This document shows positions 3,713 to 42,937 of a stretch of 64,000 nucleotides of DNA, in pieces. Numbering within the stretch: position 1 is the stretch's first letter; each line of letters opens with the position of its first letter. The notes below the pieces were generated by a model, which did no database searches, was not told where the DNA came from, and worked only from the letters and a program-made list of their open reading frames with translations. A program made the position numbers and the translations under genes. Source of the DNA: Candidatus Krumholzibacteriia bacterium (lineage in GTDB: Bacteria > Krumholzibacteriota > Krumholzibacteriia > WVZY01); the NCBI GenBank assembly GCA_046754105.1, contig JBHHVD010000001.1, positions 42,733 through 106,732 on the forward strand, written 5' to 3'.

Positions 3713-3716
3713 GCAC

Positions 3717-26461: not shown

Positions 26462-27149
26462 AGCCCCGCCAGGGCTGCGACCGCGGCGGGGCGGCCGCTA
26501 ATCGAACCTGCATGTCGCGGGTGGGGTGCTGGACGGTGAGGACGGCGGCATGGAGTGCGATGGACCGCCCGGGAATCGGCTCGCGGGCGCCGTACTTGAG
26601 GTCCCCCGCGACCGGATGTCCCATGTCGGCCAGTTGCAGGCGGATCTGGTGATGACGCCCCGTGCCGGGTGTGACCTCGAGCAGGGTGTGGTCGCGCTTC
26701 CGCTCGAGCACCCGGTAGGAGAGAACGGACGGTTTGGCGTCGGCACCCGGCCCGGACTCGATACGTGACTTCAAGTGGGTCCTCTTGATGAACGCTTCGA
26801 GTCGTCCCTCGTTCGCCGCCACGCGGCCGACCACGACCGCAAGATACGTTTTTTCAACCCGCCGCATTTGAAACTCGCGGGTCAGGCGCGACGCTGCTTT
26901 CGACGTACGGGCGAAAAGAACGACCCCGGACACCGGCCGGTCGATCCGGTGCACCAGCCCCAGGAACACGTTACCCGGCTTGTCATACTTCTGCTTGAGG
27001 TATGCCCTCCCCGCTTCGAGCAGGGTAGGGTCCCCCGTCCTGTCCCCCTGGACCAGGACCCCGGCCGGCTTTTCCACACCGAGCAGGTGGTTGTCCTCGT
27101 AAAGCACCCGGAGGCGTACGGGGCTTTTTCTATCTTCGGATTGGGCCAT
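26430..27149 (-). CDS. RluA-family pseudouridine synthase
   Basis: HRIDRPVSGVVLFARTSKAASRL holds the catalytic Asp motif. VLYEDNHLLGVEKPAGVLV is also present. Confidence 0.9.
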   Translation of the reverse strand: MAQSEDRKSPVRLRVLYEDNHLLGVEKPAGVLVQGDRTGDPTLLEAGRAYLKQKYDKPGNVFLGLVHRIDRPVSGVVLFARTSKAASRLTREFQMRRVEKTYLAVVVGRVAANEGRLEAFIKRTHLKSRIESGPGADAKPSVLSYRVLERKRDHTLLEVTPGTGRHHQIRLQLADMGHPVAGDLKYGAREPIPGRSIALHAAVLTVQHPTRDMQVRLAAAPPRSQPWRGFMPAIENHFR

Positions 27150-27177
27150 TGACAGTCCCGGGGTTGCAGGCTATACT
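27149..27177 (+). promoter_or_regulatory. Strong sigma70-type promoter, TTGACA-17-TATACT, for the arsR / P-type ATPase operon
   Basis: The -35 is TTGACA at 27149-27154 and the -10 is TATACT at 27172-27177. Both are perfect or near-perfect consensus. Divergent from the rluA start. Confidence 0.6.
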
Positions 27178-27183
27178 AACGAT

Positions 27184-27197
27184 TGAACAGCTGTTCA
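27184..27197 (+). promoter_or_regulatory. Perfect 14-bp palindrome TGAACAGCTGTTCA, the putative ArsR/SmtB-family operator
   Basis: Lies 7 nt downstream of the -10 element and 31 nt upstream of the arsR ATG. The 6-2-6 TGAACA..TGTTCA arrangement resembles the 12-2-12 operators of SmtB/CzrA-type metalloregulators. Confidence 0.6.
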
Positions 27198-27228
27198 TAT
27201 GTTAAACTGTTCTCCACAGGGACAATCG

Positions 27229-27612
27229 ATGGATAACCTAATAAAAAACAAGAAGATAGAAAGCTCCACCGACACGTGTGAAGTGCCGTTTGTCGACGAG
27301 GTCCGGGTGGCCGCGGTGCGGGCCGTGATGAAACCGCAAGCGGTGTTTCATTCGATGGCCGAGATCTTCAAGGCGCTCTCTGACCCCACCCGGGTGCGGA
27401 TACTCTACGCGCTCTCCGTGCGGGAGTTGTGCGTGTGTGACCTCGCCAATCTGCTCGGCCGTTCCAGTTCGTCCATCTCGCACCAGCTGCGACTTCTCCG
27501 CCACATGAAGCTCGTGAGATTCAGGAAGGCGGGCAAGAGCACCTACTACTCGCTGGACGACGAGCACATTCACAACCTCTTCCGTGAAGGATTAAAGCAC
27601 GCCGAGGAGTAG
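27229..27612 (+). CDS. ArsR/SmtB-family metal-sensing transcriptional repressor
   Basis: [42 protein letters not shown] is a winged-HTH ArsR domain with the ELCVCD metal site. Start chosen at MDNLIK; the track ORF begins at 27199, inside the operator. Confidence 0.85.
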
Positions 27613-27661
27613 TTTTCCTCCGAAAACTCCCCGCCTGCTGCCCGGAACCCTGGAATCGATC

Positions 27662-29767
27662 ATGCCCGAAAATTCCATAACCGTACAATTCGATATCGAG
27701 GGCCTGTGCTGCAACGATGACCAGGCCCTCATCGAGAAGAAAATGCGCGCGCTCGGCGGCGTCCGCGCGTGCGACGTCAACATCGTCAGCCAGGTACTGC
27801 GCGTGGAATACGACCCGGGCCGGCTGTCCCCACAGAGCATCATCAAGTCGGTTGCCGAAACGGGGATGAAGGCGCTCGCCGCCGACCGGCGGCATCCGCG
27901 GCCCGCGTGGTGGCGTGAACGCCGCGTCCTCCTGCTCGTGCTCTCGGGGCTCCTTACCGGCGCGGGTCTGATCACCGCGGCGGCGGGCGCCCACGTGTGG
28001 ATCGCCCGATCACTCTACGCGCTCGGCATTGCGGCCGGCGGTTTTTACCCGGTTCGATCCGGTCTCTCGGCGGCACGGTCCTTTTCCATGAACATCAATA
28101 CCCTGCTCATACTGGGTGTGGTCGGCGCGGTGGGCCTGGACTTGTGGGCGGAGGCTGCGGTCCTCGTCGTCGTGTACTCGCTGGGTAACGTGCTGGAGAC
28201 CTTCGTCGTCCGCAAGGCGAGAGGAGCGATCAAGTCGTTTGTCCAGCTGATGCCCAGGGAGGCCCTGGTCATTCGGGGAAGGAACGAGTCGCTCGTGGCG
28301 ACGAAAGACCTGCGGGTGGGCGATACGGTGCGCGTTCGCCCGGGGGAAAAGATCCCGGTAGACGGCACGGTGATCGACGGCGAGTCCTACGTCGACGAAT
28401 CGGCGGTCACCGGCGAACCGGTGCCGCTGCGCAAGACCGGCGGGCGGCGAGTGTTCGCCGGCACGATGAACCAGCAGGGTTCGTTCACCGCCCGCGTCGA
28501 CAAGGAGGTGGAGGACACGACCCTCGCCAGGATCATCCACTCCGTCGAAGAAGCGCAAACCAGGAAGTCGCGCTACCAGCTCTTCGGCGAACGGTTCTCG
28601 CGCGTTTACACACCGGTGATGTTCCTGCTGGGTGCGATCGTGGCCGTGGTGCCGCCTCTGCTCTTCGGCGCCGCCTGGCAGGATTGGATCTACCGGGCGC
28701 TCGTGGTGTTTGTCGTATCGTGTTCGTGCGGGATCGCTCTGTCGGTGCCCGTGGCCGTCGTTGCGGCCGTCGGCAACGCGGCCCGTCACGGTATCTTGAT
28801 GAAGGGCGGTCTCTACCTGGAGAAGACGGCACGAATAAAGGTCGTGGCCTTCGACAAGACCGGCACGCTCACCATCGGCAGGCCTTCGTTGCAACACGTC
28901 GTCACCGGCGACGGCGCATCGGGAGAGGAAATCCTGTCGCTGGCCGCTTCGATGGAATCCATGTCGGAACACCCCCTCGGAGAGGCCATCGTCCGCAGGG
29001 CGAGGGAATCGGACGTGTACCGCGACCGGAAGGTGTCTGATTTCGAAGCCGTCCCCGGCCGTGGTGTCCGCGCGCGTGTCGACGGGCACGAGTACCTCCT
29101 GGGCAATCGAAGGTTTTTCGAGGAGGCGCGCGTCGCCCTCGGCGGACTGGCAGCGGCCATCGCGGACTTCGAGTCGCAAGCGCACACGCCCGTCATTTTC
29201 GGCACGCGGCAGAGCGTGCTGGGCGTGTTCGCCATTTCCGATTCGTTGAAGCTCGAGTCCCGGGACTCGGTGGCCCGGCTCAAGGCGCGCGGGCTGCGGG
29301 TCACCATGCTGACCGGGGATACGGCAGGCACGGCCGCGGCGGTGGCACTCTCCGCGGGTATCGGTCGTTACCGCTCGGAGCTCCTGCCGCAAGACAAGAT
29401 CCGCGCCGTGACCGAGATCCAGGGCACCGTCGGCGCCGTGATGATGGTGGGAGACGGCATCAACGACGCCCCCGCCATGGCCGTGGCCGACATCGGCGTT
29501 GCGATGGGCGCGGCCGGCACGGACGTGGCGATGGAAACCGGCGATGTCGTGCTCCTCACCGACGATCTGTCGCGCCTGCACCGGCTCTTCGGGCTGGGTC
29601 GCCGGACGGTGCGCACCATCCACCAGAATATCTTCTTTTCCCTCTTCGTAATCGCAGTTCTGGTGCCCGCCGCGCTCTTCGGGCGGATCGATTTGCTGTC
29701 CGGACTGCTGATCAACGAGGGGGGCGCCATCCTCGTTATTCTGAACGGGTTGAGGCTTCTGAAGTGA
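27662..29767 (+). CDS. Heavy-metal-translocating P1B-type ATPase (Zn/Cd/Pb/Co-class exporter)
   Basis: DKTGTLT and GDGINDAP are present, with a TGE actuator region. The N-terminal HMA-like domain reads GLCCNDD instead of the usual MxCxxC. The TM6 metal motif reads [13 protein letters not shown] where CPC is expected. Confidence 0.9.
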
Positions 29768-29907
29768 GCGCCGCCCGCCGCACATCGTATGCACGGTGGC
29801 CGCGCCGGCCCGCCGGGCAGAGCAGACGGTCGCCGCCGCGCGTGCCGCCGACGATTTGTACCGTGCAATGACGAACGGCCTGCCGAGTAGCAGCACCAGA
29901 ACACGGG

Positions 29908-30945
29908 CTACGGTCGGTTTCCCTCCGTCGTCCGGATCGAGTCCGCGAGCGCGGCTGCGATGATACGATGCGCTACGGCGCCCCACACGTGGCCCTCCGC
30001 AGAGTTGAAATCGCGCACACCTTCGAACCACGGCGTCACCTCGATATAGTCGAGATCTCCCCGGCGGTCCATTTCCAACACGGTGTTCTTGATGTGCGGG
30101 TGCCGATCCAGCTGTTCGTTGACTGCGATCATCACGAGCGCGGCCCCATCACGCTTGAGACCCGCCGCGAACTGCCCCAACAACTCGGCGTAGAACCGCT
30201 CCTGCATCGGCACTTCGTCCCCATCGGTGCGAGTGTCGTACTCACGTTCCTTCTGTTTGACCCTGGTAGCCTTCAGCATGAGATAGACGCGGTTTCTAAA
30301 AAAATTGTAGAGCTGCGACCGCTGAATGATCGAGCGTGACAGGTATTTCTTGGCCCAGTTGATTCCGCCGTCCCCGTCGACGAACTCGAGCCGGCCGTCC
30401 TCGACGCGAGTCACCATGTTGTTGAAATTGTCCTCGGGGTCGTTCGAGCAGTACTGCAAGACGACTATTTCGGGGTGAAACAAACTGCCGAAATCGTAGT
30501 AACGCCGCACCTCCTGAGTGAGCCCCCAGCCGGGGTTTCCGAGGTTGACGACGTCGTATCGTCCGTCCAGCTCTCTCGCCAGCCGCTGCGGATATTCCTC
30601 GCCGTCGTCGACACCCATGCCGAACGTGTACGAGTCTCCGAGGGTAACGATTGTCGGCTTTTGCGGAGGGCTCGTCAGCTCGACCGCGTCACCGCGGTAA
30701 CCCTGTTTGTTGATCGTGTAATGAAACTTGTACCTGCCGGGAACGGAATGAACCATGCGCGTGTTCTCGAAAAGCACAAACCCGTACCTGGGCGAGTACT
30801 TGTAGCGGGGCGAAAGGTACTCCACGGGGCTGAACAACCTCAGAGTCACCTCGCCCGCCGCGAGGACGAATACCGCCGTAATCGCCAACATGAATATATA
30901 CAAGCGCAACTTCTTGATGCCGTTTTCCCCTATGTGTGGGTTCAT
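29908..30945 (-). CDS. SGNH/GDSL-family hydrolase with an N-terminal membrane anchor
   Basis: Internal Met gives MNPHIGENGIKKLRLYIFMLAITAVFVLAAG, a TM segment. Block I is TLGDSYTFG, and block V is near the C-terminus at AEGHVWGAVAH. The track ORF extends further 5' without support. Confidence 0.7.
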   Translation of the reverse strand: MNPHIGENGIKKLRLYIFMLAITAVFVLAAGEVTLRLFSPVEYLSPRYKYSPRYGFVLFENTRMVHSVPGRYKFHYTINKQGYRGDAVELTSPPQKPTIVTLGDSYTFGMGVDDGEEYPQRLARELDGRYDVVNLGNPGWGLTQEVRRYYDFGSLFHPEIVVLQYCSNDPEDNFNNMVTRVEDGRLEFVDGDGGINWAKKYLSRSIIQRSQLYNFFRNRVYLMLKATRVKQKEREYDTRTDGDEVPMQERFYAELLGQFAAGLKRDGAALVMIAVNEQLDRHPHIKNTVLEMDRRGDLDYIEVTPWFEGVRDFNSAEGHVWGAVAHRIIAAALADSIRTTEGNRP

Positions 30946-31217
30946 GCCGGACCACCAGTATACCGTTCGCAGGCGACCCCCTTCAACATCTTCGCGGCTC
31001 CCGAGCGGGCAAGACACGGGCCCGCGGGCCCGTGGCGCGCCAATTGCCCCGTCGTCACGAGGCCGCCGCCCCGTTGGGCGTCTCGTACAGCGTATGGGTC
31101 GCACCCCCGGCATCGTGGCATGTTGACTTACCCTACCATCCGCCTTTATACTCGGGCGCGCAAATCACCGGTCTTACGCCGCGCCCACTTCGCCGCAGCC
31201 AGGAAAAGGACGAACCC

Positions 31218-32927
31218 ATGAAAGCTCCCAGGTCCCTGCTTTTTTTCGCGATCCTCATGTCTGCACCGCTGGTCTCGTGTCACCCGCACGATTCCTCCGC
31301 GGAGCACCCCTCTGCGGGTCCCGCTCGCCAATCGATCGAGACGATGGCGGCCGGGTTCTCGGCCGACCGTCTCCGGACGCACATCGAGTACCTGTCCGCG
31401 GACGAGCTCGAAGGCCGTTCGCCGGGTTCCGAGGGAGAGGCTCTCACGCTCGATTACCTGGCCGAACAGTACCGGGAGATGGGACTGTCACCGGGCAACC
31501 CGGACGGCTCCTTCCTGCAGGAAGTGCCGCTCATCGGCTCCACCGTGATCAACCGGCCGCCGTTGAGATTGGAATCCGGGGACGGGGTTGTCGAGCTCCG
31601 CTACATGGAGGACTTCATGGGCTGGACGCTTCGCAAACAGGAAAACGTGTCGGTGGACGACGCGGAGCTGGTGTTCGTGGGGTACGGGATCGTCGCGCCC
31701 GAGTACGACTGGAACGACTACAAGGACGTAGACGTAGCGGGCAAGGTCATCGTTATGCTCGTAGGTGACCCACCGCTGCCCGACACAACGCTTTTCGGCG
31801 GCCGCGCGATGACCTACTACGGTCGCTGGACGTACAAGTTCGAGATTGCGGCGGAGAAAGGAGCGGCCGGGGCGATCGTGATCCACGAGGACGCGGCGGC
31901 CGGCTACCCGTGGGAAGTCGTGTCAAATTCATGGTCAGGCGAGCAGTTTGACATCGAGCGTCCCGGGAAGGGTGCGGATCGTTGTGCCCTGGAGAGCTGG
32001 ATCACCACGCCGTCCGCGACGCGCGTGTTCGAGGGCGCCGGGCTCGAGCTGGCCCACATGTACGAATCGGCGTTGTCGAGAGAATTCCGCCCGGTTCCAC
32101 TGGGAATAAACGCCCGATGCGCGATCCGAAGCACCTTTCGCAATATTCGATCGTATAATCTCGTGGCACGTCTCGAAGGTACCGACGCGAAGCTCAAGGA
32201 CGAGTGTATTATTTATACCGCCCACTGGGACCACCTCGGCATGGGCAACCCGGCGCAGGGGGACTCCATCTACAACGGCGCGCTGGACAACGCGACAGGT
32301 GTCGCAGCCACGCTGGAGATCGCGAGGGCGTTCGTAGCCAATAGACGGCTGGCCCGCCGCTCGATACTCTTCGTCAATACGACGGGGGAAGAAAGCGGGC
32401 TCCTCGGATCGAAGCATTACGCGGAACACCCGCTCTACCCGCTGGCCAGCACCGTTGCCATGATCAATATCGACGGACTCAACGTCTGGGGCCGAACGAA
32501 AGACGTCGTCGTGATCGGGTACGGTTTCTCCGATCTCGACCAATACCTCGGCCGGGCCATCCGCGCCGAGAACCGCTACCTCAAGCCCGACTCGGAACCA
32601 GAGAAGGGCTACTACTATCGCTCCGACCATTTCCCCTTTGCGAAGAAAGGTGTCCCCGCGCTGTACGCGGATAGCGGCACCGAATTCGTGGACAGACCCG
32701 GCGACTGGGGCAGCAAGGTCCGCGACGAGTACACGCGGACCCGATACCACAAGCCGCAGGACGAGTTCGATCCGGAATGGAACCTCAGCGGGGCCGTCGA
32801 GGACCTGAATGCGTACTTCCGCGTCGGGATGATGATCGCCGCCGCCGACGCCTATCCGAGGTGGAGCGCCAGGAGTGAGTTCCGCGAAATCAGGGAGCGA
32901 TCCCTGCGGGCGAGCGGCCGCAAGTAG
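31218..32927 (+). CDS. Secreted M28-family zinc aminopeptidase with a PA domain
   Basis: Signal peptide MKAPRSLLFFAILMSAPLVSC after the RBS aggaaaagga. M28 core: HWDHLGMG...DNATGVAATLEIARAF...TTGEESGLLGSKHYAEH...YYRSDHFPF. Confidence 0.85.
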   Translation: MKAPRSLLFFAILMSAPLVSCHPHDSSAEHPSAGPARQSIETMAAGFSADRLRTHIEYLSADELEGRSPGSEGEALTLDYLAEQYREMGLSPGNPDGSFLQEVPLIGSTVINRPPLRLESGDGVVELRYMEDFMGWTLRKQENVSVDDAELVFVGYGIVAPEYDWNDYKDVDVAGKVIVMLVGDPPLPDTTLFGGRAMTYYGRWTYKFEIAAEKGAAGAIVIHEDAAAGYPWEVVSNSWSGEQFDIERPGKGADRCALESWITTPSATRVFEGAGLELAHMYESALSREFRPVPLGINARCAIRSTFRNIRSYNLVARLEGTDAKLKDECIIYTAHWDHLGMGNPAQGDSIYNGALDNATGVAATLEIARAFVANRRLARRSILFVNTTGEESGLLGSKHYAEHPLYPLASTVAMINIDGLNVWGRTKDVVVIGYGFSDLDQYLGRAIRAENRYLKPDSEPEKGYYYRSDHFPFAKKGVPALYADSGTEFVDRPGDWGSKVRDEYTRTRYHKPQDEFDPEWNLSGAVEDLNAYFRVGMMIAAADAYPRWSARSEFREIRERSLRASGRK

Positions 32928-33019
32928 TCCGCGTCTCGCGCGACCAGTATTAGCCAACCAATTATCTTCAAGTTGGTTACCCGCTTCCCGGCCGACCGGG
33001 CACCCGTACTCTGGTCGAG

Positions 33020-33044
33020 AAACTTGACTTTTGTCAAGTTTTGT
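33020..33044 (+). terminator. Perfect hairpin AAACTTGAC-TTTT-GTCAAGTTT followed by TGTC: a rho-independent terminator for the M28 gene, or an operator-like palindrome (coordinates +/-1)
   Basis: A 9-bp stem with a 4-nt loop and a trailing T-run. It sits ~95 nt after the M28 stop, in an AT-richer 300-bp intergenic region upstream of secreted paralogue A. Confidence 0.5.
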
Positions 33045-33226
33045 CGGATAATACGCTTCCTCCGTGCCACAAGTTTGCGAGCCTCAAATCGTCCGCGCAG
33101 CTCCCACTCCTGCGCGGGCAATCGCATGTTGCAGAAGGTGGCATCGAGATTCCTTCTAGCCACATTTCGATCTAGAGAACCAGTCGCCGAATGACAGGAT
33201 GTCGTCGGCGGAAAGGAGATCGTCCA

Positions 33227-33943
33227 ATGAGAACCGTCAGCGGACTCCTGTTCGTTCTGTGTCTCGCCATGCCGGCCCTCGCCGGTCCGCCCATCAATGG
33301 CGTCTACCAGTCGACCGACCTCGGTGGCCCCATGCTGGCGGGACGCTACAGCGTGTCGTGGACCGCGCCGAACGGCGCCTTATCCGTGGGCAATACGACA
33401 GACAAGTTTTCGTGGGACGGGCTGACGCTCGGAACCCAGTGGTGGATGTACTGTGCCGAGCTCGCGATTCCTCCGAGTTTGATCGATGACACGGTCGATG
33501 TGAACGGGAACGGCACGCAGACCTGGTCCGGCACCTTCACCGGCGGATTCTGCATCCTGGCCGGCAACGGCCCGTGGGGTGACGGGTCGCAGCCCTCGTA
33601 CATGGCGCCGTACACGTCATATTCGGAGGTCAAAACCCTGACGTTCTCGAACTTCCAGGTGGTCGGAGTCGTAAGCAGCGTCAATGTCCAGGCGGGGCCT
33701 TTCGTCGGCTTCAACAACGCGTGCATGTCCCTCTCGATTTCCAACCAGGATGAACTTGCCACGACCGATACGGCGGCGCTGCCGGCGGATTTTCCGGGCT
33801 TTATAGACCCGCTCACCTGCTCGTCGACCCGGACCATGGGTAGTTGGGGTACCTCGGACGGGTTTACGCTGGTCATCCTGGGATGCACGGTACCCGTCGA
33901 GGAATCCACGTGGGGTGCGATCAAGGCCCTCTACAACGAATAG
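33227..33943 (+). CDS. Secreted Cys-containing protein of unknown function, family member A, with the C-terminal tag ...PVEESTWGAIKALYNE
   Basis: Signal peptide MRTVSGLLFVLCLAMPALAGPP. About 35-40 % identical to the next gene over its full length. No recognisable catalytic motif. Confidence 0.7.
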   Translation: MRTVSGLLFVLCLAMPALAGPPINGVYQSTDLGGPMLAGRYSVSWTAPNGALSVGNTTDKFSWDGLTLGTQWWMYCAELAIPPSLIDDTVDVNGNGTQTWSGTFTGGFCILAGNGPWGDGSQPSYMAPYTSYSEVKTLTFSNFQVVGVVSSVNVQAGPFVGFNNACMSLSISNQDELATTDTAALPADFPGFIDPLTCSSTRTMGSWGTSDGFTLVILGCTVPVEESTWGAIKALYNE

Positions 33944-33980
33944 CGGTAATACGCCACTTTTCGGTGACAGGAGGATAACG

Positions 33981-34676
33981 ATGAGAATTGCGAAAAAAAT
34001 TTTGTTGCTCTTGGCGGTTTTCGCGGCGTTGGCGGTTTCGTCCCGCGCCGGCGCACCCATTCAGGGGACGTACAAGAGCTCCGCGGGTCAGGTAATGGCT
34101 GGGCGCTACGCGGAGTCATTCGCGAACGCGGGTGAGTTTCTCACCCCCGGCAACGTGATGACGACGGAATCATGGAATGGAGCGTCGCTCGCTACGCAGT
34201 ATTTCTTTTCCTGCCCGCAGCTGGTCTCCGTCAACCTCGTCCAGGACAACACGGGCGGAACCGGAAACGGCTCCATCATCTGGTCGAAGGTCTACCTGGG
34301 AGGCGCGTTCTTTATGAACGGCGCGGGCGAGGCCTGGGACGGCGGCGACGCGACCTACTCCGGCGTGATCGATACGTATACCGAGCGCGTCACCGTTCTC
34401 TTCATCGGCGGGGTCAGGGTGTCCGCGACGTCAAACATCGAGGGGAGCGGGCGCTTCAACGGCTTTCCCAACGCGTGCATCAGCTGGATTGCAAACGGGG
34501 TGGACGTGGCGGGCGCCAAGCCGGCCGGATTTCCCGACTACGTCGATTCCTCGTGCAATCCGAATCGCGTCTTCGGCCGCTTCGGCAACCGTACTGATTA
34601 TACGATCAATGTCATCCCCTGCGTTGTGCCGGTCGAGGACGCCACGTGGGGACACATCAAGGCCCTGTACGAGTAG
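33981..34676 (+). CDS. Secreted Cys-containing protein of unknown function, family member B, with the C-terminal tag ...PVEDATWGHIKALYE
   Basis: Strong RBS gacaggaggataacgATG. Signal peptide MRIAKKILLLLAVFAALAVSSRAGAP. Collinear with member A: GxYxS...AGRY; NACxS; GFPxxxD; CxVPVE. Confidence 0.75.
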   Translation: MRIAKKILLLLAVFAALAVSSRAGAPIQGTYKSSAGQVMAGRYAESFANAGEFLTPGNVMTTESWNGASLATQYFFSCPQLVSVNLVQDNTGGTGNGSIIWSKVYLGGAFFMNGAGEAWDGGDATYSGVIDTYTERVTVLFIGGVRVSATSNIEGSGRFNGFPNACISWIANGVDVAGAKPAGFPDYVDSSCNPNRVFGRFGNRTDYTINVIPCVVPVEDATWGHIKALYE

Positions 34677-34718
34677 AGGGAAACAAACGTGGGCACAGCC
34701 CGGCCCGCGCCGGCGGCC

Positions 34719-36197
34719 TTAAATAAAGAACCGGCCGGCCAGGTAGATGAACAGCGTCACCACGACGATCGCGGCCAGGTTCAACCACAACCCCGCGCCG
34801 GCCATCTCGGCAACGGTAAGGCGCCGGGTGCCGAACACGATGGCGTTCGGCGGCGTTGCCACCGGCAACATGAACGCGCACGAGGCAGCAAGCGTCGCCG
34901 GCGCCATGAGCAACAGCGGTGGTACGCCGATGACCGTGCTGAGCGAGGCAATGATCGGCAGCACGACCTGCGTGGTAGCCGTGTTGGAGGTAAGCTCGGT
35001 GAGGAACGTGATCAGACCACACACCGCCAGCACCATCAGAACCGTCGGCAGCCCCTGCAGGGCGGCGAGTTGTCCGCCGAGGTAGGCGGACAGACCCGAC
35101 TCCTGGAATCCCTTCGCCAGGGCGAACCCGCCGCCAAGAAGTACGACGATATCCCACGGCAGCTTCGCCACCATCCCTCGATCCATGATGAACTCGGGCC
35201 TGCCCCTTGCGGGCACCAGGAAGAGTGTCAGGGCGACGGCGATGGCGACCGTGCCGTCATCGATGAACGAGACGTCCCCGAACAGTGACGCCCAGCCGTG
35301 CAGCACCGTGTTGCCGAGCGTGATATCAGCCCTCGTCACAAGCAACAGCGCGAAGAGCGCGAACGCGGCCAGGACGACTTTTTCCTCGAAGGACGGCCGT
35401 CCCAGGGCCCGGTATTCCCGCTCGAGAACCTCGGGATCCACCCCGAAGGCGATGCGCCGGGTCAACCGAAGCCGGAGCACGGCATAGGTCACCAGGAAGA
35501 GCAGCGCGGAAACCGGCAGCCCGAGCGACATCCACGAGAGAAACGTAATCTCCCGGGCCTCCGGGAACGAGATGGAATAGATTCTCGCCAGGGACAAATT
35601 CGGGGCGGTTCCTACCAGCGTGGCCATGCCACCGATCGATGCCGCGTAGGCGACGCCGAGCAGGAGGGCGACCTGGAGCTTTTTCACGTCGCCCGCGGCC
35701 GTCTCCTCGAGCTTCACGAGGAGTGCGACCACGATCGGCACCATCATCATCGCCGTCGCCGTATTTGAAATCCACATCGACAACAGCCAGCTCCCCAGCA
35801 TAAAACCGAGGAGGAGCCGGTTTGGGCTCTTGCCGACGGCCAGGATGACCTTGAGCGCAATGCGGCGGTGAAGATTCCAGCGCTCCATGGCAAGCGCAAT
35901 GATGAACCCGCCGATGAACAGAAAAAGAATGTTGTTGAGGTAGAGCGGCGCCACTTCCCTGCCCTTCATGATGCCCAGCGCGGGGAAGAGGGCGATCGGG
36001 AACAGTGCAGTCACGGCGAGCGGTATCGCGTCGGTAAGCCAGAATATCGCCATCAACACGCCGACGGCCAGAGTCCTGGCGACGGCGGGGTGCTCCGGAT
36101 CCACACGGACGAACACGAGCAGTATCAGGAAGACGGTCAATCCCGCCAGGACATACGCGCGACGGCGATTCATACGCAATGCGAGCGGTTTCTCCAT
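34719..36197 (-). CDS. DASS/SLC13-family anion:sodium symporter (CitT / sulfate-dicarboxylate type permease)
   Basis: Start at the internal Met MEKPLALRMNRRRAYVLAG. Multi-TM. The duplicated motifs ...SNTATAMMMVPI... and ...TSNTATTQVVLPI... are the hairpin-loop signatures of DASS transporters. Confidence 0.85.
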   Translation of the reverse strand: MEKPLALRMNRRRAYVLAGLTVFLILLVFVRVDPEHPAVARTLAVGVLMAIFWLTDAIPLAVTALFPIALFPALGIMKGREVAPLYLNNILFLFIGGFIIALAMERWNLHRRIALKVILAVGKSPNRLLLGFMLGSWLLSMWISNTATAMMMVPIVVALLVKLEETAAGDVKKLQVALLLGVAYAASIGGMATLVGTAPNLSLARIYSISFPEAREITFLSWMSLGLPVSALLFLVTYAVLRLRLTRRIAFGVDPEVLEREYRALGRPSFEEKVVLAAFALFALLLVTRADITLGNTVLHGWASLFGDVSFIDDGTVAIAVALTLFLVPARGRPEFIMDRGMVAKLPWDIVVLLGGGFALAKGFQESGLSAYLGGQLAALQGLPTVLMVLAVCGLITFLTELTSNTATTQVVLPIIASLSTVIGVPPLLLMAPATLAASCAFMLPVATPPNAIVFGTRRLTVAEMAGAGLWLNLAAIVVVTLFIYLAGRFFI

Positions 36198-36202
36198 TGA
36201 CA

Positions 36203-36826
36203 CTAGCCGGCGCTTCCAGCCGTGGGTACGCCGTCCATACCAGCCCACAGATACCAGGTCGCTACGGTGCGGTAGGGTCGCCAGCGGTCCGTGATCTCCG
36301 CCAGATTCGTGTCCCCCGGGCGCCGGTAGTGTCGCTCGATCGCCTTGCGCAGCCCCAGGTCGCCCAGGGGAAAGACGTCGGGGCGGTTCAAACCGAATAT
36401 GAGGAACATCTCCGCGCTCCATCTGCCGATGCCTCGCACGCGCGTCAACTCGCTCACTATTTCCTCATCGCTGAGACGTCTTATCTCTCGGCGCGGAAAG
36501 CGATCGGATTCGAAGTATCGCGCCAGTTCGACGACGTACTCCGCCTTGCGCCGCGAGAGACCGGCTGCGATGAGTTGCGCGCTCGAAACCCGCAGGAAGT
36601 CGGCCGGCTTGGGATGGCGCCCGCCGATAGCTCTCAACAGGCGCCTGTGAATCGCACAGGCCGCTTTCCAGCTGAGCTGTTGCCAGACGATCGATTCGAA
36701 CAGCGCAACAAAATAACTTCTTGCCCGCCTCAGCCGGCACGGCCCGATTTCCGCGATGAGGTGCCTCATGGTCGGATCGCAGCGGGCGAGGTATTCGCAC
36801 GCCCGGTCGAAATCTCCCGGATTCAA
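36203..36826 (-). CDS. HhH-GPD superfamily DNA glycosylase (AlkA-like DNA-3-methyladenine glycosylase II)
   Basis: ELTRVRGIGRWSAEMFLIFGLNRPDVFPLGDLGLRKA carries the HhH-GPD motif with the catalytic Asp. Confidence 0.85.
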   Translation of the reverse strand: MNPGDFDRACEYLARCDPTMRHLIAEIGPCRLRRARSYFVALFESIVWQQLSWKAACAIHRRLLRAIGGRHPKPADFLRVSSAQLIAAGLSRRKAEYVVELARYFESDRFPRREIRRLSDEEIVSELTRVRGIGRWSAEMFLIFGLNRPDVFPLGDLGLRKAIERHYRRPGDTNLAEITDRWRPYRTVATWYLWAGMDGVPTAGSAG

Positions 36827-36869
36827 CGGGTGATCCTTTCACTGATTGCGTTGAAATGGCAGGTGTCGT

Positions 36870-38150
36870 TTGTTAGCTTACAACAATGATGACGACGTTG
36901 CAAAGACCGGGGACCCGGAAATGAGCGGGTTCCGTAGAGAGGACCTCATCTACGACTGGAACGAGGTGGAGGCGCCGCCCCAGCACGCGCTCAAGCTCAA
37001 CGACGAAACGCTTCGCGACGGTCTCCAATCCCCGTCGGTGGCAACCCCCGCCATAGAGAGCAAGATCAAGATCCTCCGCCTCATGGAGGATCTCGGCATT
37101 TACAGCGCCGATATAGGGTTACCCGGTGCCGGCCCACAGGCCTTCAACAGCACGCTCGCCCTCGCCGCCGAGATCGCGCGGGCGAAGATGCGACTGTACC
37201 CCTACTGCGCCGCGCGGACCATCGTTAATGACATCGCGCCCATTATCGAGATCTCCCAAAAGACGGGGCTGCGGATCCAGGCGGCGCTGTTCATGTTCTC
37301 GAGCCCCATCCGGCAACTGACCGAAAGCTGGGACGCGGACCGCATGCTCAAAACCAGCGAGGATGCCATCGCTTTCGCTCTCAAGAACGACGTCCCGGTA
37401 ATGTACGTTACCGAGGACACGACGCGCTCCCGGCCGGAGACGTTGACCCGCCTCTACCGGATGGCGCTCGACAACGGCGTCGAACGCGTCTGTATCGCCG
37501 ATACCGTCGGGCACGCAACCCCGACCGGCGTGCGAAGAATCGTCGGTTTTCTAAAGGAAATGGTCGATGAAACGAGTGTCGACGTGGGAATCGACTGGCA
37601 CGGCCACCGGGATCGCGGCTTGAGCATCATCAATGCGCTGACCGCTTACTACGCGGGCGCCGACCGCATCCACGGCTGCGCCCTCGGCATCGGAGAGCGT
37701 GTCGGCAACACGCCGCTCGACCTGCTCATGGTCAACTTCAAATTGCTCGGGATACTGGACCAGGACCTGACGAGGCTGCCCGAGTACTGCCGCACGGTTT
37801 CGGAGGCGTGCAACGTACCGATTCCGGATAACTACCCGGTCGTCGGAGCCGATGCGTTCCGGACGGCGACCGGTGTCCACGCGGACGCCATTATCAAGGC
37901 GTTCAAGAAGGGCGACGCCTGGCTGGCAAATCGAGTGTATAGCGCGGTGCCGGCGGACGAATTTGGACTGACGCAGATTATCGAAATCGGTCCAATGAGC
38001 GGCAAATCCAACGTCCGCTACTGGCTGGAACAGCACGACGTCCGCGTAACGGATGAAGTCGTGAACAGGATCTTTGCGGAAGCAAAACGCGTGGACTCGG
38101 TGTTGTCGGAGAAACAAATAGTGGCCCTGGTGTCAAAGTCCGCCGATTGA
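36870..38150 (+). CDS. HMGL-like family protein (2-isopropylmalate / citramalate / homocitrate synthase-like), lacking the LeuA C-terminal regulatory domain
   Basis: LNDETLRDGLQSP is a DRE-TIM metallolyase N-motif. The region ...IADTVGHATP...DWHGHRDRG...N is also present. 426 aa. Confidence 0.7.
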   Translation: MLAYNNDDDVAKTGDPEMSGFRREDLIYDWNEVEAPPQHALKLNDETLRDGLQSPSVATPAIESKIKILRLMEDLGIYSADIGLPGAGPQAFNSTLALAAEIARAKMRLYPYCAARTIVNDIAPIIEISQKTGLRIQAALFMFSSPIRQLTESWDADRMLKTSEDAIAFALKNDVPVMYVTEDTTRSRPETLTRLYRMALDNGVERVCIADTVGHATPTGVRRIVGFLKEMVDETSVDVGIDWHGHRDRGLSIINALTAYYAGADRIHGCALGIGERVGNTPLDLLMVNFKLLGILDQDLTRLPEYCRTVSEACNVPIPDNYPVVGADAFRTATGVHADAIIKAFKKGDAWLANRVYSAVPADEFGLTQIIEIGPMSGKSNVRYWLEQHDVRVTDEVVNRIFAEAKRVDSVLSEKQIVALVSKSAD

Positions 38151-38176
38151 TCCGGCGAGACTCCGGTCATCCGGTT

Positions 38177-38863
38177 TCATTCCCCGCGGTACATGGCTTT
38201 TATGGCACCCCAGGTTCGTTCCTCGACCGGAATCGTGAAGTCTTCCATGATGACGGTTATGCACCGCTCGCCGTCCAGAATCCGGTTGCCGTTGCGGTCC
38301 TGGTAGACGGCGACCTCCAGCCGTAGCACGCCGCTGGACTTGATATTGATCGTCGTCTTATCCGAAAAATACCCGTTGCCGGTCGGCGTCGATACCACGA
38401 TGCGGGGGAGGTGGTAGCGGAGGTCCTGGACCGGCTCGCCGTCGACCTGGATCGCCGCCGGAACGCCCAGGGGGCGAGGTGTGAACTGAACGAAGACATC
38501 GCTCAACTGGCGGGGCGTGTCCGCGAAACCATCGATGACGAGCGCCATTTCCGCGCCGAAGAACAGGAACTCATTTCGGCCCGACGTGGAAGGAGAAAAT
38601 CCGTCGAGCCCCGGCGCCTGGTAAATCTCAAAGGCTACGCGCTCGCCGAACTTGTCCCACAACATCAGTCCCCCGACCGAATACGCGGGATCAAAAAGCG
38701 GATCGCCCGGGCCCTTGGTCTCGTATTGTGTGGGGTCGAACCGAAAGCTCACGCGGCCCGCCGGGTAGGCGAGAATGCACGGCTCCGCAGAAGCCGCAAC
38801 GGCGCTCGCCGTGATCGCGACTACCAGTAGTAAAATCAGACGCAGAGTATGCCCTTGGCCCAC
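38177..38863 (-). CDS. Secreted protein of unknown function, family member C, with the C-terminal tag ...IPVEERTWGAIKAMYRGE
   Basis: Signal peptide MGQGHTLRLILLLVVAITASAVAASA. Divergent in body but shares the invariant Cys-PVEE-x-TWG-x-IKA-x-Y C-terminus with members A and B. Confidence 0.65.
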   Translation of the reverse strand: MGQGHTLRLILLLVVAITASAVAASAEPCILAYPAGRVSFRFDPTQYETKGPGDPLFDPAYSVGGLMLWDKFGERVAFEIYQAPGLDGFSPSTSGRNEFLFFGAEMALVIDGFADTPRQLSDVFVQFTPRPLGVPAAIQVDGEPVQDLRYHLPRIVVSTPTGNGYFSDKTTINIKSSGVLRLEVAVYQDRNGNRILDGERCITVIMEDFTIPVEERTWGAIKAMYRGE

Positions 38864-39233
38864 CTATCCACCTCCGAAAAGCTGCAGACGCAGATGGGCG
38901 TTAATCAATCCGAACCTGCCCGCGCGGAGAGCGCGGACCCCCATTGCAGGGAAGCTGCACTGTTGTAGTAGCGACTCAAGCTGCCCTTGCCCTTAGTTTT
39001 AGCCGAATAATTATACCATACACGGCCCCGGGCTGGAAGCGCGATGTTGGCCTCGCGGCGCGGAGAAAACCGTCCGGCGTGACCGCCTCCGTCCGGTTTC
39101 GGCCCGTGGACGGCCGTCTCATCCCCGGGGCTTTTGGCTTTACAAAGCAGCACGTATGTTTAATAGTTCAAGGTGAATGCGCCGTTTCCGCCGCGCTTGC
39201 GCCCGGACGATACGCCGCAATCAGGATATCCTA

Positions 39234-40883
39234 ATGAGGCTTCCACCAAGCATCCAGACGGCGATCTTCGCCCTGTGCCTGGCGCTGCCGGCCTGCGGTG
39301 GCGGGGACGAACAAGCCACGCCCGGCACGGCCGGCACCACGACGGAAGCGGCAACCCCGGGAGGTACCGTCATCCGGCACTTGCAGGCGGATTGCAAGAC
39401 CCTAAACTGGGTCTTGTACACGACCGTATACGAGGATTACGTGCTGCGCTGCCTCTACGATAACCTCCTCGATTATGACGCGAAAATGGAGATACAGCCC
39501 GTGCTCGCGAAGAGCGTCAAGGTCAGCGATGACCACCTGCGCATCACCGTCGAGCTGCGCGACAGCCTTTTCTGGCACGACGGCGAGCCGATCACCTCCG
39601 AGGACGTCGCGTTTACAGTCGACAAGATACGAGACCCGGCCGTTCCGGCGGTGAACAAGGAGGGTTGGTTCAACAAACTCGATAAGGTCGAAGTGGTCGA
39701 TGACAAGACGATCGTGTTCGTTTGGTCTGTACCGTATGCGCCCGCGCTCCACGCGCTGACGAAGCTCTCACCGATCCCCAAACATATCTACGGAAAGGGC
39801 GATTTCCTGACCAATCCGGCGAACCGGGCCCCGGTGGGCAGCGGAGCGTTCCGGTTCGAGGAGTGGCAAACGTCGCGGATGATCAGCGTGGTACGCAACG
39901 ATAACTATTACCGCCGCAAGGCGTACCTCGACCGTATCATTTTTCGCGTGATTCCCGACCGATCAGTGGCGCTCAATGCCATGAAGACGGGCCAGCTCGA
40001 CGAAATGCGTTTGCGGCAACAACAGTGGGAACAAGTGAGTGGGGACAAAGCGTTCGTCGACAAATTCAACATGAACTACTACGACGTACCGCAGTACAAC
40101 TATCTGTCCTGGAACTGTCGCGCGATCTGGTTCAAGGACAAGCGCGTTCGCAGGGCCCTGACAATGCTGTTCGACCGCGAGGAAATCATCGCCACCCTGT
40201 ATTCGGGGTTCTCAAAACCGGTGAGCGGCCCGTTTTACATCAACTCGCCCGCCTACGATCATTCGGTAGCACCGTATCCCTACGACCCGCAGGCCGCGGT
40301 TCGGTTGCTGGAGGACGCCGGCTGGATCGATAACAACGGAGACGGCGTGCGTGAGAAGGATGACGTGAACTTCGAGTTCGAGTTCTACGTTACTTCCGGA
40401 AGTCGTATCGGGCAGTCCTTCGCTCAGCTGCTGCAGGAGCAGTGTGAAAAGGCGGGCATCATTGTTAAGATTCGGCGTCTCGAGTCGGCGACGTTCTTCG
40501 ACAAGGTGTTCAAAGGTGAATACGACGCCGCGGCTCTGGCCTGGCAGCTTGACATCGACCCGGATTTGTACGACACGTTCCACTCCACACAGGTCCCGCC
40601 GATCGGTTTGAACCATGCGTTTTATAACAACCCGGAGGTGGACACGCTGCTCGAGCGGGCACGGGTCGAATTCGACAAAGACAAACGCAACGAGCTATAC
40701 CACCAGGTTCATCGGTTGATACACGAGGATTCGCCGTACACCTTTGTCAACTCCGTTCCCGAGAAACGTCCCGTCCATCATCGAATCGGCAACGTGGCTA
40801 TTTCGCCCAGCGGGCCGTTTCGATTCTATCCCGGCGGCATTTACTGGTATGTCAAGAGTGATATGATGGAAGCGAGAAAATAA
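39234..40883 (+). CDS. ABC transporter substrate-binding lipoprotein, family 5 (peptide/nickel; OppA/DppA-like)
   Basis: Lipoprotein signal MRLPPSIQTAIFALCLALPACGGG. SBP_bac_5-type sequence follows (…YDNLLDYD...). 549 aa. Confidence 0.85.
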   Translation: MRLPPSIQTAIFALCLALPACGGGDEQATPGTAGTTTEAATPGGTVIRHLQADCKTLNWVLYTTVYEDYVLRCLYDNLLDYDAKMEIQPVLAKSVKVSDDHLRITVELRDSLFWHDGEPITSEDVAFTVDKIRDPAVPAVNKEGWFNKLDKVEVVDDKTIVFVWSVPYAPALHALTKLSPIPKHIYGKGDFLTNPANRAPVGSGAFRFEEWQTSRMISVVRNDNYYRRKAYLDRIIFRVIPDRSVALNAMKTGQLDEMRLRQQQWEQVSGDKAFVDKFNMNYYDVPQYNYLSWNCRAIWFKDKRVRRALTMLFDREEIIATLYSGFSKPVSGPFYINSPAYDHSVAPYPYDPQAAVRLLEDAGWIDNNGDGVREKDDVNFEFEFYVTSGSRIGQSFAQLLQEQCEKAGIIVKIRRLESATFFDKVFKGEYDAAALAWQLDIDPDLYDTFHSTQVPPIGLNHAFYNNPEVDTLLERARVEFDKDKRNELYHQVHRLIHEDSPYTFVNSVPEKRPVHHRIGNVAISPSGPFRFYPGGIYWYVKSDMMEARK

Positions 40884-40899
40884 CCCATCACGTCCCGGT

Positions 40900-41877
40900 A
40901 TGCTGATCTATACCCTTCGCCGTCTGGCATATTTGTTTCCAACCCTTCTCGGCATCACCTTCATCACGTTTTTCATAATCTCACTGGCTCCGGGCAATCC
41001 GGTCGACGTGATGCAGGAAGGCACGATGAGTACCCGCATCTCGCCGGAGGCCTATCAGGAAATGCTCCGTCTCTACGGGCTGGACAAGCCCTTTCACACC
41101 CGGTACGTGGTGTGGCTCAAGCGGCTGCTCACGCTCGACTTTGGAAATTCGTTCCTGGATCACCGCCCAGTCATCACAAAGATAACCGAACGCCTGCCGG
41201 CGACGCTGCTGCTCGGCGGTGTATCGCTGCTGTTGGTGCTCGTACTGGCGATTCCGTTCGGGCTGTACTCGGCGGTCCGGCAGCATTCCCGCTTCGATAA
41301 GATCGGCGGGACCGTGCTGTATATGCTCTACTCCCTTCCCGAATTCTGGGTGGCGCTTCTCTTGATTCTTTTCTTTGGAGTCAAGCTCGACGTTCTTCCC
41401 TTTATAGGCATCGAATCCCTCGGAGCCCGACACCTCGGGTTCTTCGCCTATTTGTGGGACCGCATTCTCCATATGATCCTGCCTACGATATGTTTGACAT
41501 ACGGGGCTTTGGCCTTTCTCTCGCGGTTTGTGCGGGGTTCCACCCTGGAGGTCATCCACCAGGACTACATTCGAACCGCGCGCGCCAAAGGCCTGGATGA
41601 TCATCGAGTGGTCTACAAGCACGTTTTCAAGAACACACTGATTCCCCTGGTCACCCTGTTCGGCATCCTGCTGCCGACGCTGATCAGCGGCAGCGTCATC
41701 CTGGAATACATATTCAGTTGGCCCGGGATCGGAGCGTTGTTTTTCGATTCCGTAATGGCAAGGGACTATCCGACGGTAATGGGTCTGAGCTTCGTTACAT
41801 CGGTGCTCGTCTTGATGGGCACGCTGATCGCAGACCTGTTGTACACGTGGATCGATCCGCGGATTTCGTATGAGTGA
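40900..41877 (+). CDS. ABC peptide transporter permease (DppB/OppB-like)
   Basis: MLIYTLRRLAYLFPTLLGITFITFFI... has six TM helices and the EAA-like loop. Confidence 0.9.
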   Translation: MLIYTLRRLAYLFPTLLGITFITFFIISLAPGNPVDVMQEGTMSTRISPEAYQEMLRLYGLDKPFHTRYVVWLKRLLTLDFGNSFLDHRPVITKITERLPATLLLGGVSLLLVLVLAIPFGLYSAVRQHSRFDKIGGTVLYMLYSLPEFWVALLLILFFGVKLDVLPFIGIESLGARHLGFFAYLWDRILHMILPTICLTYGALAFLSRFVRGSTLEVIHQDYIRTARAKGLDDHRVVYKHVFKNTLIPLVTLFGILLPTLISGSVILEYIFSWPGIGALFFDSVMARDYPTVMGLSFVTSVLVLMGTLIADLLYTWIDPRISYE

Positions 41878-42937
41878 TCGCCTGGAGACAACCGGCGGCG
41901 TGGACGGCGCCACCGACAAGAGTGCGGGCCTGGCCGGCATCCTTTGGCAGAGGCTCCGGCGCGACCGGTTCGCCATGACCGGTCTCTATATCGTTCTCTT
42001 GCTTTGCGCCGTCTCCTACCTGGCACCCACCCTGGCGAACGACAAGCCGTTGATAATGAGATACGAGGGGCGACTCTATTTCCCCGCGGTGGCGGAGCTG
42101 TTTCCGCTGAACAAGATCCTCCGCTACCCGGAATTGAGAGGTGTTGATTACGACAATTTGCGCGACGACCCGGCGATCGCTATCCTGAACCCCCCCGTGC
42201 CCTACTCGCCCTACGAAACCTCGCTCTCGGAACGATTCCAGGCGCCGAGCCGCCGGCACTGGATGGGCACCGACGATCTGGGCCGTGACGTGTCCAGCCG
42301 CATGATCCACGGCGCTTCCGTCTCACTGCTGGTGGGCTTTGTAGCGGTAGGGATCGCGCTCTTCATCGGCCTGCTCGCCGGCGCCCTGGCCGGGTTTTAC
42401 GGCGGCATGGTAGACATCGTCGTTTCGAGAATAATTGAAGTCGTGATGTGTTTCCCGTCGTTCTTCCTCATCCTGGCGGTTATCGCGTTTCTGCCGCCGA
42501 GCATTTACAACATCATGGTGGTTATCGGAATCACTCGCTGGACGGCGATTGCTCGTTATACGAGGGGGGAGTTTCTACGCCTCAAGAAACAGGACTTCGC
42601 GTACGCGGCGAGGGCACTGGGGGCCAGCGATCGCAAGATCATCTTTCGTCACATCCTGCCCAACTCGCTGGCGCCGATACTCGTATCGGCCACGTTCGGC
42701 ATAGCGAACGCGATCCTGATAGAAGCGGCGTTGAGCTTTCTGGGCTTTGGCGTACAACCCCCGGCGGCGAGTTGGGGAGGCATTCTATCGCTGGCCCGCG
42801 AGTACATCGAAGTGGCGTGGTGGCTGGCTACGATCCCCGGTCTCGCGATCTTTGTCACGGTAACGGGCTACAACATTCTCGGCGAGGGGTTGCGGGACGC
42901 GAGCGACCCCCGTCAGACGCTCACCGAGAGCCGCTAG
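41870..42937 (+). CDS. ABC peptide transporter permease (DppC/OppC-like)
   Basis: BPD_transp_1-type permease with an N-terminal OppC-like extension. Overlaps the upstream permease by 8 nt. Confidence 0.9.
   Translation: MSDRLETTGGVDGATDKSAGLAGILWQRLRRDRFAMTGLYIVLLLCAVSYLAPTLANDKPLIMRYEGRLYFPAVAELFPLNKILRYPELRGVDYDNLRDDPAIAILNPPVPYSPYETSLSERFQAPSRRHWMGTDDLGRDVSSRMIHGASVSLLVGFVAVGIALFIGLLAGALAGFYGGMVDIVVSRIIEVVMCFPSFFLILAVIAFLPPSIYNIMVVIGITRWTAIARYTRGEFLRLKKQDFAYAARALGASDRKIIFRHILPNSLAPILVSATFGIANAILIEAALSFLGFGVQPPAASWGGILSLAREYIEVAWWLATIPGLAIFVTVTGYNILGEGLRDASDPRQTLTESR

Follow-up and report, generated by a model that had tools for sequence, protein, structure and literature searches.

A modular C-terminal tag on exported proteins of Krumholzibacteriota, Eisenbacteria, and Latescibacterota: a candidate envelope sorting or docking signal with a possible link to type IX secretion

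Does the common ending of three small exported proteins of a Candidatus Krumholzibacteriia bacterium reflect shared descent, or is it an address that unrelated proteins carry? The proteins, A, B, and C, are encoded in a 64,000-nt stretch of a metagenome-assembled genome (MAG; assembly GCA_046754105.1, contig JBHHVD010000001.1, positions 42,733 to 106,732), the whole of which is referred to here as the window, and each of them closes with PVE[ED]xTWGxIKA[LM]Y plus one to three residues. On the evidence set out below, this ending, the tail, is best read as an address tag, a C-terminal module rather than a remnant of paralogy, and we hold with high confidence that it is a genuine tag for envelope targeting or docking. 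The genes and their tags are as follows.

33227–33943, plus strand: gene A, 238 aa; exported protein with a signal-peptide-like N-terminus at about residues 1–20 (by eye), a β-barrel-like body (residues 21–220), and the C-terminal tag.
33884–33940, plus strand: tag of A, C220-TVPVEES-TWGAIKALY-NE; a Cys leading into a Pro/Val/Glu linker of 8 residues, on which an 8-residue helix follows (from the motif position and the AlphaFold2 [AF2] model).
33981–34676, plus strand: gene B, 231 aa; tandem paralog of A with A-like architecture.
34620–34673, plus strand: tag of B, C214-VVPVEDA-TWGHIKALY-E.
38177–38863, minus strand: gene C, 228 aa; exported protein with an Ig-like β-sandwich body (residues 28–207) unrelated to that of A and B, and a tag as in A and B.
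38180–38236, minus strand: tag of C, FTIPVEER-TWGAIKAMY-RGE.

The encoded proteins end in ...GCTVPVEESTWGAIKALYNE (A), ...PCVVPVEDATWGHIKALYE (B), and ...FTIPVEERTWGAIKAMYRGE (C), each directly before the stop codon, and A and C are 100% identical to the hypothetical proteins ACE5EO_00290 and ACE5EO_00315, encoded on a 112-kb contig of a Candidatus Krumholzibacteriia MAG. A preliminary description of this DNA, made from the sequence alone, had drawn attention to the three open reading frames (ORFs) and their common C-terminal motif, and both are present and confined to these positions: in six-frame translation the three C-termini are the sole matches in the window to [ST]WG.[IVL]K..[YF], and the back-translated TWGxIKA[LM]Y is matched three times compared with 0.00 times expected from 100 dinucleotide-preserving shuffles. 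Gene B lies 37 nt downstream of A, and the two proteins are 36% identical over their full length, within the range of 35–40% first estimated. The same description had taken C for a third paralog, and this did not hold. The BLASTP alignment of C with A or B is confined to the last 24 residues, alignment of the A-family with the C-family by hhalign covers only the last 27 columns (E = 5.6e-10), and the folds predicted by AF2 differ, barrel-like for A and an Ig-like sandwich for C. By these comparisons C is not a detectable paralog of A or B, and the presence of one tail on two unrelated bodies within the window strengthens the idea of a tag.

Homologs defined by their bodies numbered 34 for A (35–100% identity) and 58 for C (34–100% identity), and the tail is retained in all 92 of them, down to ~35% body identity. 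Every one ends in E-[ST]-T-W-G-x-[IV]-K-x-[LMI]-[YF] followed by zero to four residues. The tail had been called invariant, which is right for W and K, invariant in both family alignments, and nearly so for G and Y, which are at least 90% conserved, whereas the remaining positions vary across the homologs. The conserved Cys residues remarked on earlier correspond to C76, C166, and C220, all invariant in the A/B family; C220 would close a terminal disulfide, which fits an oxidizing compartment. One protein matched in the C-family search, P0089 (in this text P-numbers designate proteins and L-numbers loci from these searches), has a Cys/His-rich region before the tail (ECDHDWYRRPCPDCEEETTNCCHHCHHTCAHG) and then a normal tail, and may be a metal-binding body that carries the tag.

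A degenerate DNA pattern that encodes E-[ST]-T-W-G-x-I-K-x-[LMIV]-Y and holds ~37 bits served to assess the spread of the tail in one genome per GTDB species (596 Gb). At least 116 loci in these species representatives match the pattern, compared with an estimated ~7 matches by chance, and ~6 of the matches listed look like chance. The same pattern had no match in 2.9 million viral contigs, which served as a background control. Among the 123 matches listed, a stop codon follows the motif after zero to four codons in 117, and after exactly one codon (...LY[RKE]-stop) in 80. The other six comprise three tails with 9–49 extra residues (L008, L019, and L097), one tail internalized by domain duplication (L100), and two internal look-alikes, L034 (Bacteroidales) and L105 (Polaribacter). 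These two encode homologous-looking lipoproteins in which FETTWGxIKxxY lies inside the fold, and we treated them as chance or structural matches belonging to the expected background. Over all DNA examined, 182 occurrences of the protein motif stand at a C-terminus, compared with 6 inside a protein. The hosts among the matches listed are Krumholzibacteriota/-ia, Eisenbacteria/Eiseniibacteriota, and Latescibacterota, with single matches labeled Gemmatimonadota, Effluviviaceae, and Bacteroidota and two more in bins labeled Verrucomicrobiota and Saccharimonadaceae, which are possibly mis-binned. By these labels the tail is confined to a small number of related, uncultured phyla and some adjacent lineages of the Fibrobacteres–Chlorobi–Bacteroidetes (FCB) group. 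Several MAGs contain at least three to five strict matches apiece.

With the tail removed, the bodies of the 108 tagged ORFs that reach 100 aa or more fell into at least 49 BLASTP clusters. Pfam domains of the larger clusters include pullulanase X25, CBM20, Big_5, BACON, right-handed β-helix, CHRD, and PD40 and NHL propellers, which are typical extracytoplasmic binding or enzymatic modules. A signal-peptide-like N-terminus was found, by one crude heuristic for both sets, in 96 of the 116 tagged ORFs listed (83%) and in 120 of 560 neighboring ORFs (21%), an odds ratio of 17.6 (P = 5e-36), and a few of the tagged proteins (L171, P0130, and L100) are lipoproteins. The codons of the conserved residues are freely synonymous, with Ser written as TCN and as AGC and all four codons used for both Gly and Thr; this indicates selection on the peptide and not on a DNA element, and conservation caused by a DNA or RNA element was rejected for the same reason. 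A 42-column tail profile searched against 1.84 billion representative proteins gave 59 matches, mostly A-family members and spurious repeat proteins, with P0130, P0138, and a few new bodies as the useful yield; a 40-aa tail profile gave seven candidates and two matches.

These results bear on ordinary paralogy as an explanation, in which a single protein family would simply have a conserved structural terminus. That A and B are genuine tandem paralogs, and that the tail is kept in all the homologs of A and C, agrees with it, but C and at least 47 other body families have the tail alone in common, many of the bodies belong to unrelated Pfam families, and in the AF2 models the tail follows the last strand of two different folds whose bodies have no profile homology, rather than forming the final strand of a shared fold. 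Ordinary paralogy is thereby refuted, and we give it practically no weight. The suggestion of an unrecognized sorting or docking tag is supported instead: the tail is not restricted to three proteins but widespread, on at least 117 ORFs with at least 49 body families in several phyla, and enriched on ORFs with signal-peptide-like N-termini.

The loci that encode tagged proteins contain a second kind of C-terminal signal. Large proteins with classical type-A C-terminal domains (CTDs) of the T9SS (type IX secretion system), ending in ...SGVYFYRL...TRKMVLLR-stop, are abundant in them, and the Pfam domains FlgD_ig and Por_Secre_tail are recorded on neighbors of A- and C-family genes. By sequence comparison, homologous bodies alternate between the tail and the type-A CTD: a CTD protein of 580 aa has an N-terminal domain matched by the small tail proteins of L067, L032, and L095, another of 933 aa is matched by β-helix proteins that bear the tail, and a third of 1294 aa is matched by L112. 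No protein with both the tail and a type-A CTD was found among 20 tagged proteins scanned for domains or by a motif search of all DNA examined. The two endings show a weak resemblance. The type-A CTDs (L004–L113) end in T-[RK]-K-[MVIL]-V-L-[LVI]-R-COOH and the tail in I-K-[AS]-L-Y-R-COOH, and both usually finish hydrophobic-hydrophobic-Arg, with a Lys five to six residues from the end.

A more specific association emerged with genes resembling PorU, the T9SS sortase. In seven GTDB loci (L001, L022, L048, L076, L080, L084, and L096), an array of one to four tail genes in tandem immediately precedes, on the same strand, a gene for a PorU-like protein of ~1300–1500 aa that contains Propeptide_C25 and Peptidase_C25 domains and its own type-A CTD (TIGR04183). 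For a test in the opposite direction, the N-terminal part of the PorU-like proteins (an alignment of four sequences) was used to retrieve 80 metagenomic loci; eight tail ORFs were found in 7 of the 80, all eight upstream and on the same strand, and a looser tail regular expression detected no further tail ORFs in the 829 kb of these loci. Seven assessable loci encode a PorU-like protein that shares 47% identity or more with its counterparts in tag-positive genomes, and six of them have upstream tail genes; in the seventh, L172, only 2.6 kb of upstream sequence is available, about the length of the 2.3-kb gap in its close relative L001. No tail was found in the ~70 loci with remote PorU-like proteins (at most 34% identity). 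Altogether 14 loci show synteny of the tail with a PorU-like gene, and the bodies of the upstream tail proteins form five or more groups by BLAST, among them one with an A-family member that clusters with A and B of the window. The link to a processing enzyme that had been conjectured has partial support in the 14 loci where tail genes stand directly upstream of a PorU-like C25 gene, and any cleavage of the tail would be a putative step. Across the at least 116 tail loci, no other non-tail neighbor recurs beyond the T9SS-CTD proteins, the PorU-like cassette, sporadic extracytoplasmic function (ECF) sigma factors, and a dockerin-like small family described below.

The consensus of the tag is [C]-x(1-2)-P-[VTS]-P-V-E-E-[ST]-T-W-G-x-I-K-[AS]-[LIM]-Y-[RKE]-COOH, ~17 residues in length, with a short Pro/Val/Glu linker ahead of a helix-prone peptide of 8–9 residues. 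Counting from the Trp, and considering only positions left free by the search pattern, the matches listed prefer on the linker side P at both −8 (36%) and −6 (53%), with V, T, or S between the two at −7, followed by V at −5 (55%) and E at −4 (44%). On the helix side, position +5 is preferably A or S and position +6 L, I, or M, while R stands at +8 in 58% and the stop at +9 in 75%. A Cys stands at −9 or −10 in 51% of the tagged proteins listed, and this residue at the start of the linker is probably disulfide-bonded. As the preliminary description had observed, no transmembrane helix or basic tail follows the motif, and A, B, and C stop one to three residues after the Tyr. The AF2 models were built from the family alignments. 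That of A has a mean pLDDT of 88, with residues 21–220 mostly above 90, strands up to residue 219, coil at 220–228, and a helix at 229–236; that of C has a mean pLDDT of 87.4, with residues 28–207 above 90, coil at 208–217, and a helix at 218–225. The helix itself is of lower confidence (pLDDT ~65 in A and ~58 in C, 58–68 overall), and the tail is accordingly modeled outside both folds, as a coil linker followed by a low-confidence 8-residue helix.

A detached C-terminal helix could be an in-plane membrane anchor, resting on the surface of the inner or outer membrane and holding periplasmic proteins there, as do the C-terminal amphipathic helix of E. coli PBP5/6 and the membrane-targeting sequence of MinD. 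Our own helical-wheel projection places W, I, L, and Y on one face with K and R flanking it, tandem copies of the tail, described below, would raise membrane affinity, and a look-alike, TSWGKIKAL, occurs in an ABCG-type transporter, although at a chance level (E = 4) that is not significant. However, the helix is very short and its hydrophobic moment is unremarkable (0.32–0.58, equaled by 14–38% of shuffles). Helices that bind lipid conserve their character rather than their residues, whereas in the tail the W, the G, the K, and the Thr before the W are near-invariant from phylum to phylum and family to family and the linker is conserved as well, and neither the PorU-like synteny nor the alternation with T9SS CTDs would be accounted for. 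We consider a membrane anchor improbable.

Some proteins carry more than one copy of the tail. The lipoprotein P0130 has four tandem tail motifs at its C-terminus, L115 (positions 760–2034) has two tandem tails, P0138 has one copy just past the signal peptide and another at the C-terminus, and in L100 a tail stands between two domains. In a tandem array of tail genes upstream of the PorU-like gene of L001, the fifth paralog (positions 3375–4112) ends in ...DPPPVAE-stop, keeping the linker and lacking the TWGxIKxxY helix, and is by its sequence a natural tail-less variant. The multiple copies suggest an avidity-type binding motif, and with it a docking peptide independent of the T9SS (a "mini-dockerin") that would bind noncovalently to a glycan or to a receptor domain on an envelope or surface scaffold, assembling many binding and degradative modules on the cell; the PorU-like protein would take no part. 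It would suit such a peptide that the module is C-terminal, sits on a Pro-rich linker, and is joined to carbohydrate-binding and enzyme-like bodies; the variable residues past the Tyr argue against recognition of the carboxylate, and W, G, and K are so strictly invariant as to suggest contact with another protein. However, no candidate receptor was found; the only non-tail families to recur beside tail genes are T9SS-CTD proteins and the PorU-like cassette, and the directional synteny with PorU-like genes is left unaccounted for. We think this explanation unlikely, if worth bearing in mind.

The exposed position of the peptide at the C-terminus, ending near an aromatic residue, might also be read by a periplasmic PDZ protease or chaperone of the Prc/CtpA/DegS type, which would make the tail a quality-control or turnover tag that sets stability or signals envelope stress. 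ECF sigma factor genes lie near a few tail loci, and a gene for a PDZ-containing protease lies near one C-family gene, but these neighbors are sporadic. PDZ recognition requires a fixed hydrophobic C-terminus, whereas a variable number of residues (zero to four, occasionally 9–12) separates the motif from the carboxyl end, where Arg or Lys usually stands last, and it is hard to see why a degron would be kept in at least 49 families under strong purifying selection. This explanation is very improbable.

The explanation that we prefer is that the tail is an undescribed modular sorting or docking tag of the envelope, probably linked to the T9SS attachment machinery; taken as a whole, we put the chance that this is correct at about one half, and the link to PorU and the T9SS, taken by itself, is plausible but falls somewhat short of an even bet. 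A tagged protein would be exported by Sec and would then fold in the periplasm, where a common envelope partner would bind the exposed tail and retain or route the protein. The likeliest partner would belong to the T9SS attachment machinery around the PorU-like C25 "sortase," and the tail would then be a short alternative to the 70–100-residue type-A CTD. In a more far-reaching form, which we regard as speculative and rather unlikely, uncultured phyla of the FCB group would have a sorting route of their own in which the PorU-like C25 sortase or another T9SS attachment component recognizes a peptide of ~10 residues that forms a helix or a strand. The peptide would be either a third, minimal class of T9SS signal or a handle by which small folded proteins ride with or dock onto CTD cargo, and dozens of proteins per genome would reach the surface, possibly cleaved and covalently attached.

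Several observations weigh against the preferred explanation. Most tail loci (109 of the 116 listed) are not adjacent to a PorU-like gene, and neither are A, B, and C, whose conserved neighbors in the window are the M28 peptidase and the Opp importer. The best NCBIfam match of the PorU-like proteins is NF033707 (T9SS sortase PorU), with 116–403 bits, under the cut-off of 420, and their association with tail genes could be owed in part to particular small body families and not to the tail. A helix of ~10 residues resembles no known T9SS signal and leaves the crossing of the outer membrane without explanation, and the tandem copies together with the variable number of residues after the Tyr (zero to four, rarely 9–12) are more in keeping with a motif for binding than with a secretion signal that is cleaved. 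The binding partner of the tail, the final location of the tagged proteins, and cleavage are matters that we infer. In addition, host taxonomy is as labeled in the MAG records, and the heuristic that called signal peptides in tagged and neighboring ORFs alike is a crude one and not a trained predictor.

Other genes recur in the PorU-like cassettes. A dockerin-like small exported family has a single Ca-loop followed by a helix and ends in ...DFNCDGVVDIIDFSIFAQHYLHxC-stop (with variants in ...IFALHWLH); no Pfam match was found for it, and its ending may be another short C-terminal module. Its members are encoded at the following positions.

L022, 744–1451: dockerin-like small exported protein.
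L084, 460–1242: dockerin-like small exported protein.
L096, 4202–5038, 5874–6638, and 6557–7243: three dockerin-like small exported proteins.
L161, 6677–7282: dockerin-like small exported protein.
L162, 5920–6519: dockerin-like small exported protein.
L166, 5039–5620: dockerin-like small exported protein.

In one lineage a conserved gene of ~450 aa precedes the PorU-like gene, and its copy in L076 (5194–6540), the one copy scanned for domains, was recognized as a SurA-like peptidyl-prolyl isomerase. The other copies, and a downstream gene for a protein of ~680 aa whose C-terminus looks cyclophilin-like by eye, are placed as follows.

L161, 8309–9754: ~450-aa gene preceding the PorU-like gene.
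L162, 7659–9002: ~450-aa gene preceding the PorU-like gene.
L166, 6608–7942: ~450-aa gene preceding the PorU-like gene.
L161, 14174–16234: ~680-aa protein downstream, cyclophilin-like C-terminus.
L162, 13450–15531: ~680-aa protein downstream, cyclophilin-like C-terminus.
L166, 12130–14157: ~680-aa protein downstream, cyclophilin-like C-terminus.

The SurA-like and cyclophilin-like genes suggest a putative chaperone-assisted cassette. A different context was seen in L126, L128, and L133, in which remote C25/PorU-like genes of tag-negative lineages lie downstream of genes that by eye, from their Cys-rich ORF ends, resemble radical-SAM/SPASM-type genes for peptide maturation, unlike the tail cassette.

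At 25511–42937 of the window the genes run Ppx-GppA, pseudouridine synthase, M28 peptidase, A, B, DASS transporter, HhH-GPD glycosylase, HMGL-like enzyme, C, and SBP_bac_5/Opp permeases, which bears out the earlier remark that the genes sit between a peptidase (M28, upstream) and a peptide importer (SBP_bac_5/Opp, downstream). The order around A, B, and C is kept in the related metagenomic contigs L203 and L204, and a shortened order, M28, C-family gene, and Opp, is kept in a Latescibacterota chromosome (L117); elsewhere the neighbors of C-family genes are varied, with peptidases frequent. The peptidase and importer beside A, B, and C hint weakly that the genes may serve the uptake of peptides.

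Krumholzibacteriota, Eisenbacteria, and Latescibacterota are inferred to be degraders of polymers and proteins and to our knowledge have no cultured members. The tag marks a large set of unannotated exported proteins in these phyla, and a model of it would label part of their envelope or surface proteome at once. C-terminal sorting tags are well known as a general idea, and for LPXTG, PEP-CTERM, and the T9SS CTD alike the discovery of a dedicated envelope machine followed, and surface proteomes became reliably predictable; here the gene order with PorU-like genes offers a concrete candidate for the partner. If a 10-residue peptide does replace or complement a CTD of 70–100 residues, cargo recognition by the T9SS would be seen differently and the tail would be a very compact targeting tag, and a dedicated route, if it exists, would be new.

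Databases and literature offered no counterpart of the tail. NCBIfam 20.0 (June 2026), which includes the named CTERM and T9SS models, had no family matching A, B, or C at E ≤ 10, and Pfam-A (2025 copy) had nothing at E ≤ 10 except one irrelevant weak match, in agreement with the first impression that no named CTERM class fits. The tail profile found nothing significant among PDB sequences, its best match being the ABCG-type transporter already mentioned, and a full-text literature search of incomplete coverage found no description of the motif or of a sorting role for it in these phyla. An outer-membrane barrel with a C-terminal β-signal was considered for A and rejected; in such a barrel the last strand closes the protein with an aromatic residue, as a rule Phe, which does not apply to A.

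Among known systems, the tail has most in common with the T9SS type-A CTD (TIGR04183/PF18962, FlgD_ig-like), which also stands at the C-terminus of Sec-exported proteins of the FCB group, on cargo that includes carbohydrate-binding modules, β-helices, propellers, and peptidases. Both occur in the same genomes, are exchanged on homologous bodies, and are genetically tied to PorU-type C25 peptidases, and the features looked for in T9SS cargo, signal-peptide-like N-termini together with type-A CTDs and PorU-like genes in the same genomes and loci, accompany the tail. The CTD is, however, an Ig-like β-sandwich of 70–100 residues, whereas the tail has ~17 residues and a predicted 8-residue helix, and no match to TIGR04183, PF18962, or PF13860 (Por_Secre_tail, FlgD_ig) was found on A, B, C, or 20 other tagged proteins scanned. 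The substrates of LPXTG/sortase, PEP-CTERM/exosortase, GlyGly-CTERM/rhombosortase, and MYXO-CTERM resemble tagged proteins in carrying a short C-terminal motif on many unrelated exported proteins per genome, and in these sortase-type systems, too, a few substrate genes lie beside the enzyme gene and most are dispersed; their signals combine the motif with a transmembrane helix and a basic cluster, whereas tagged proteins end zero to four residues past the motif with no hydrophobic span. Dockerins, which bind cohesins, are likewise C-terminal modules on Pro-rich linkers of carbohydrate-active or carbohydrate-binding bodies and are occasionally duplicated, but a dockerin has ~70 residues, two Ca-binding loops, and known cohesin partners, the tail, shorter at ~17 residues, has neither such loops nor such partners, and no dockerin match (PF00404) was found on A, B, or C in Pfam. 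The anchors of PBP5/6 and MinD are also short terminal helices set off from the fold, whose binding a tandem copy would strengthen, and they differ from the tail in that the latter has near-invariant residues, a linker conserved across phyla, a modest hydrophobic moment, and many protein families as bearers. As a short peptide with neither a transmembrane segment nor a folded domain, the tail has a form unlike that of the described bacterial C-terminal signals known to us.

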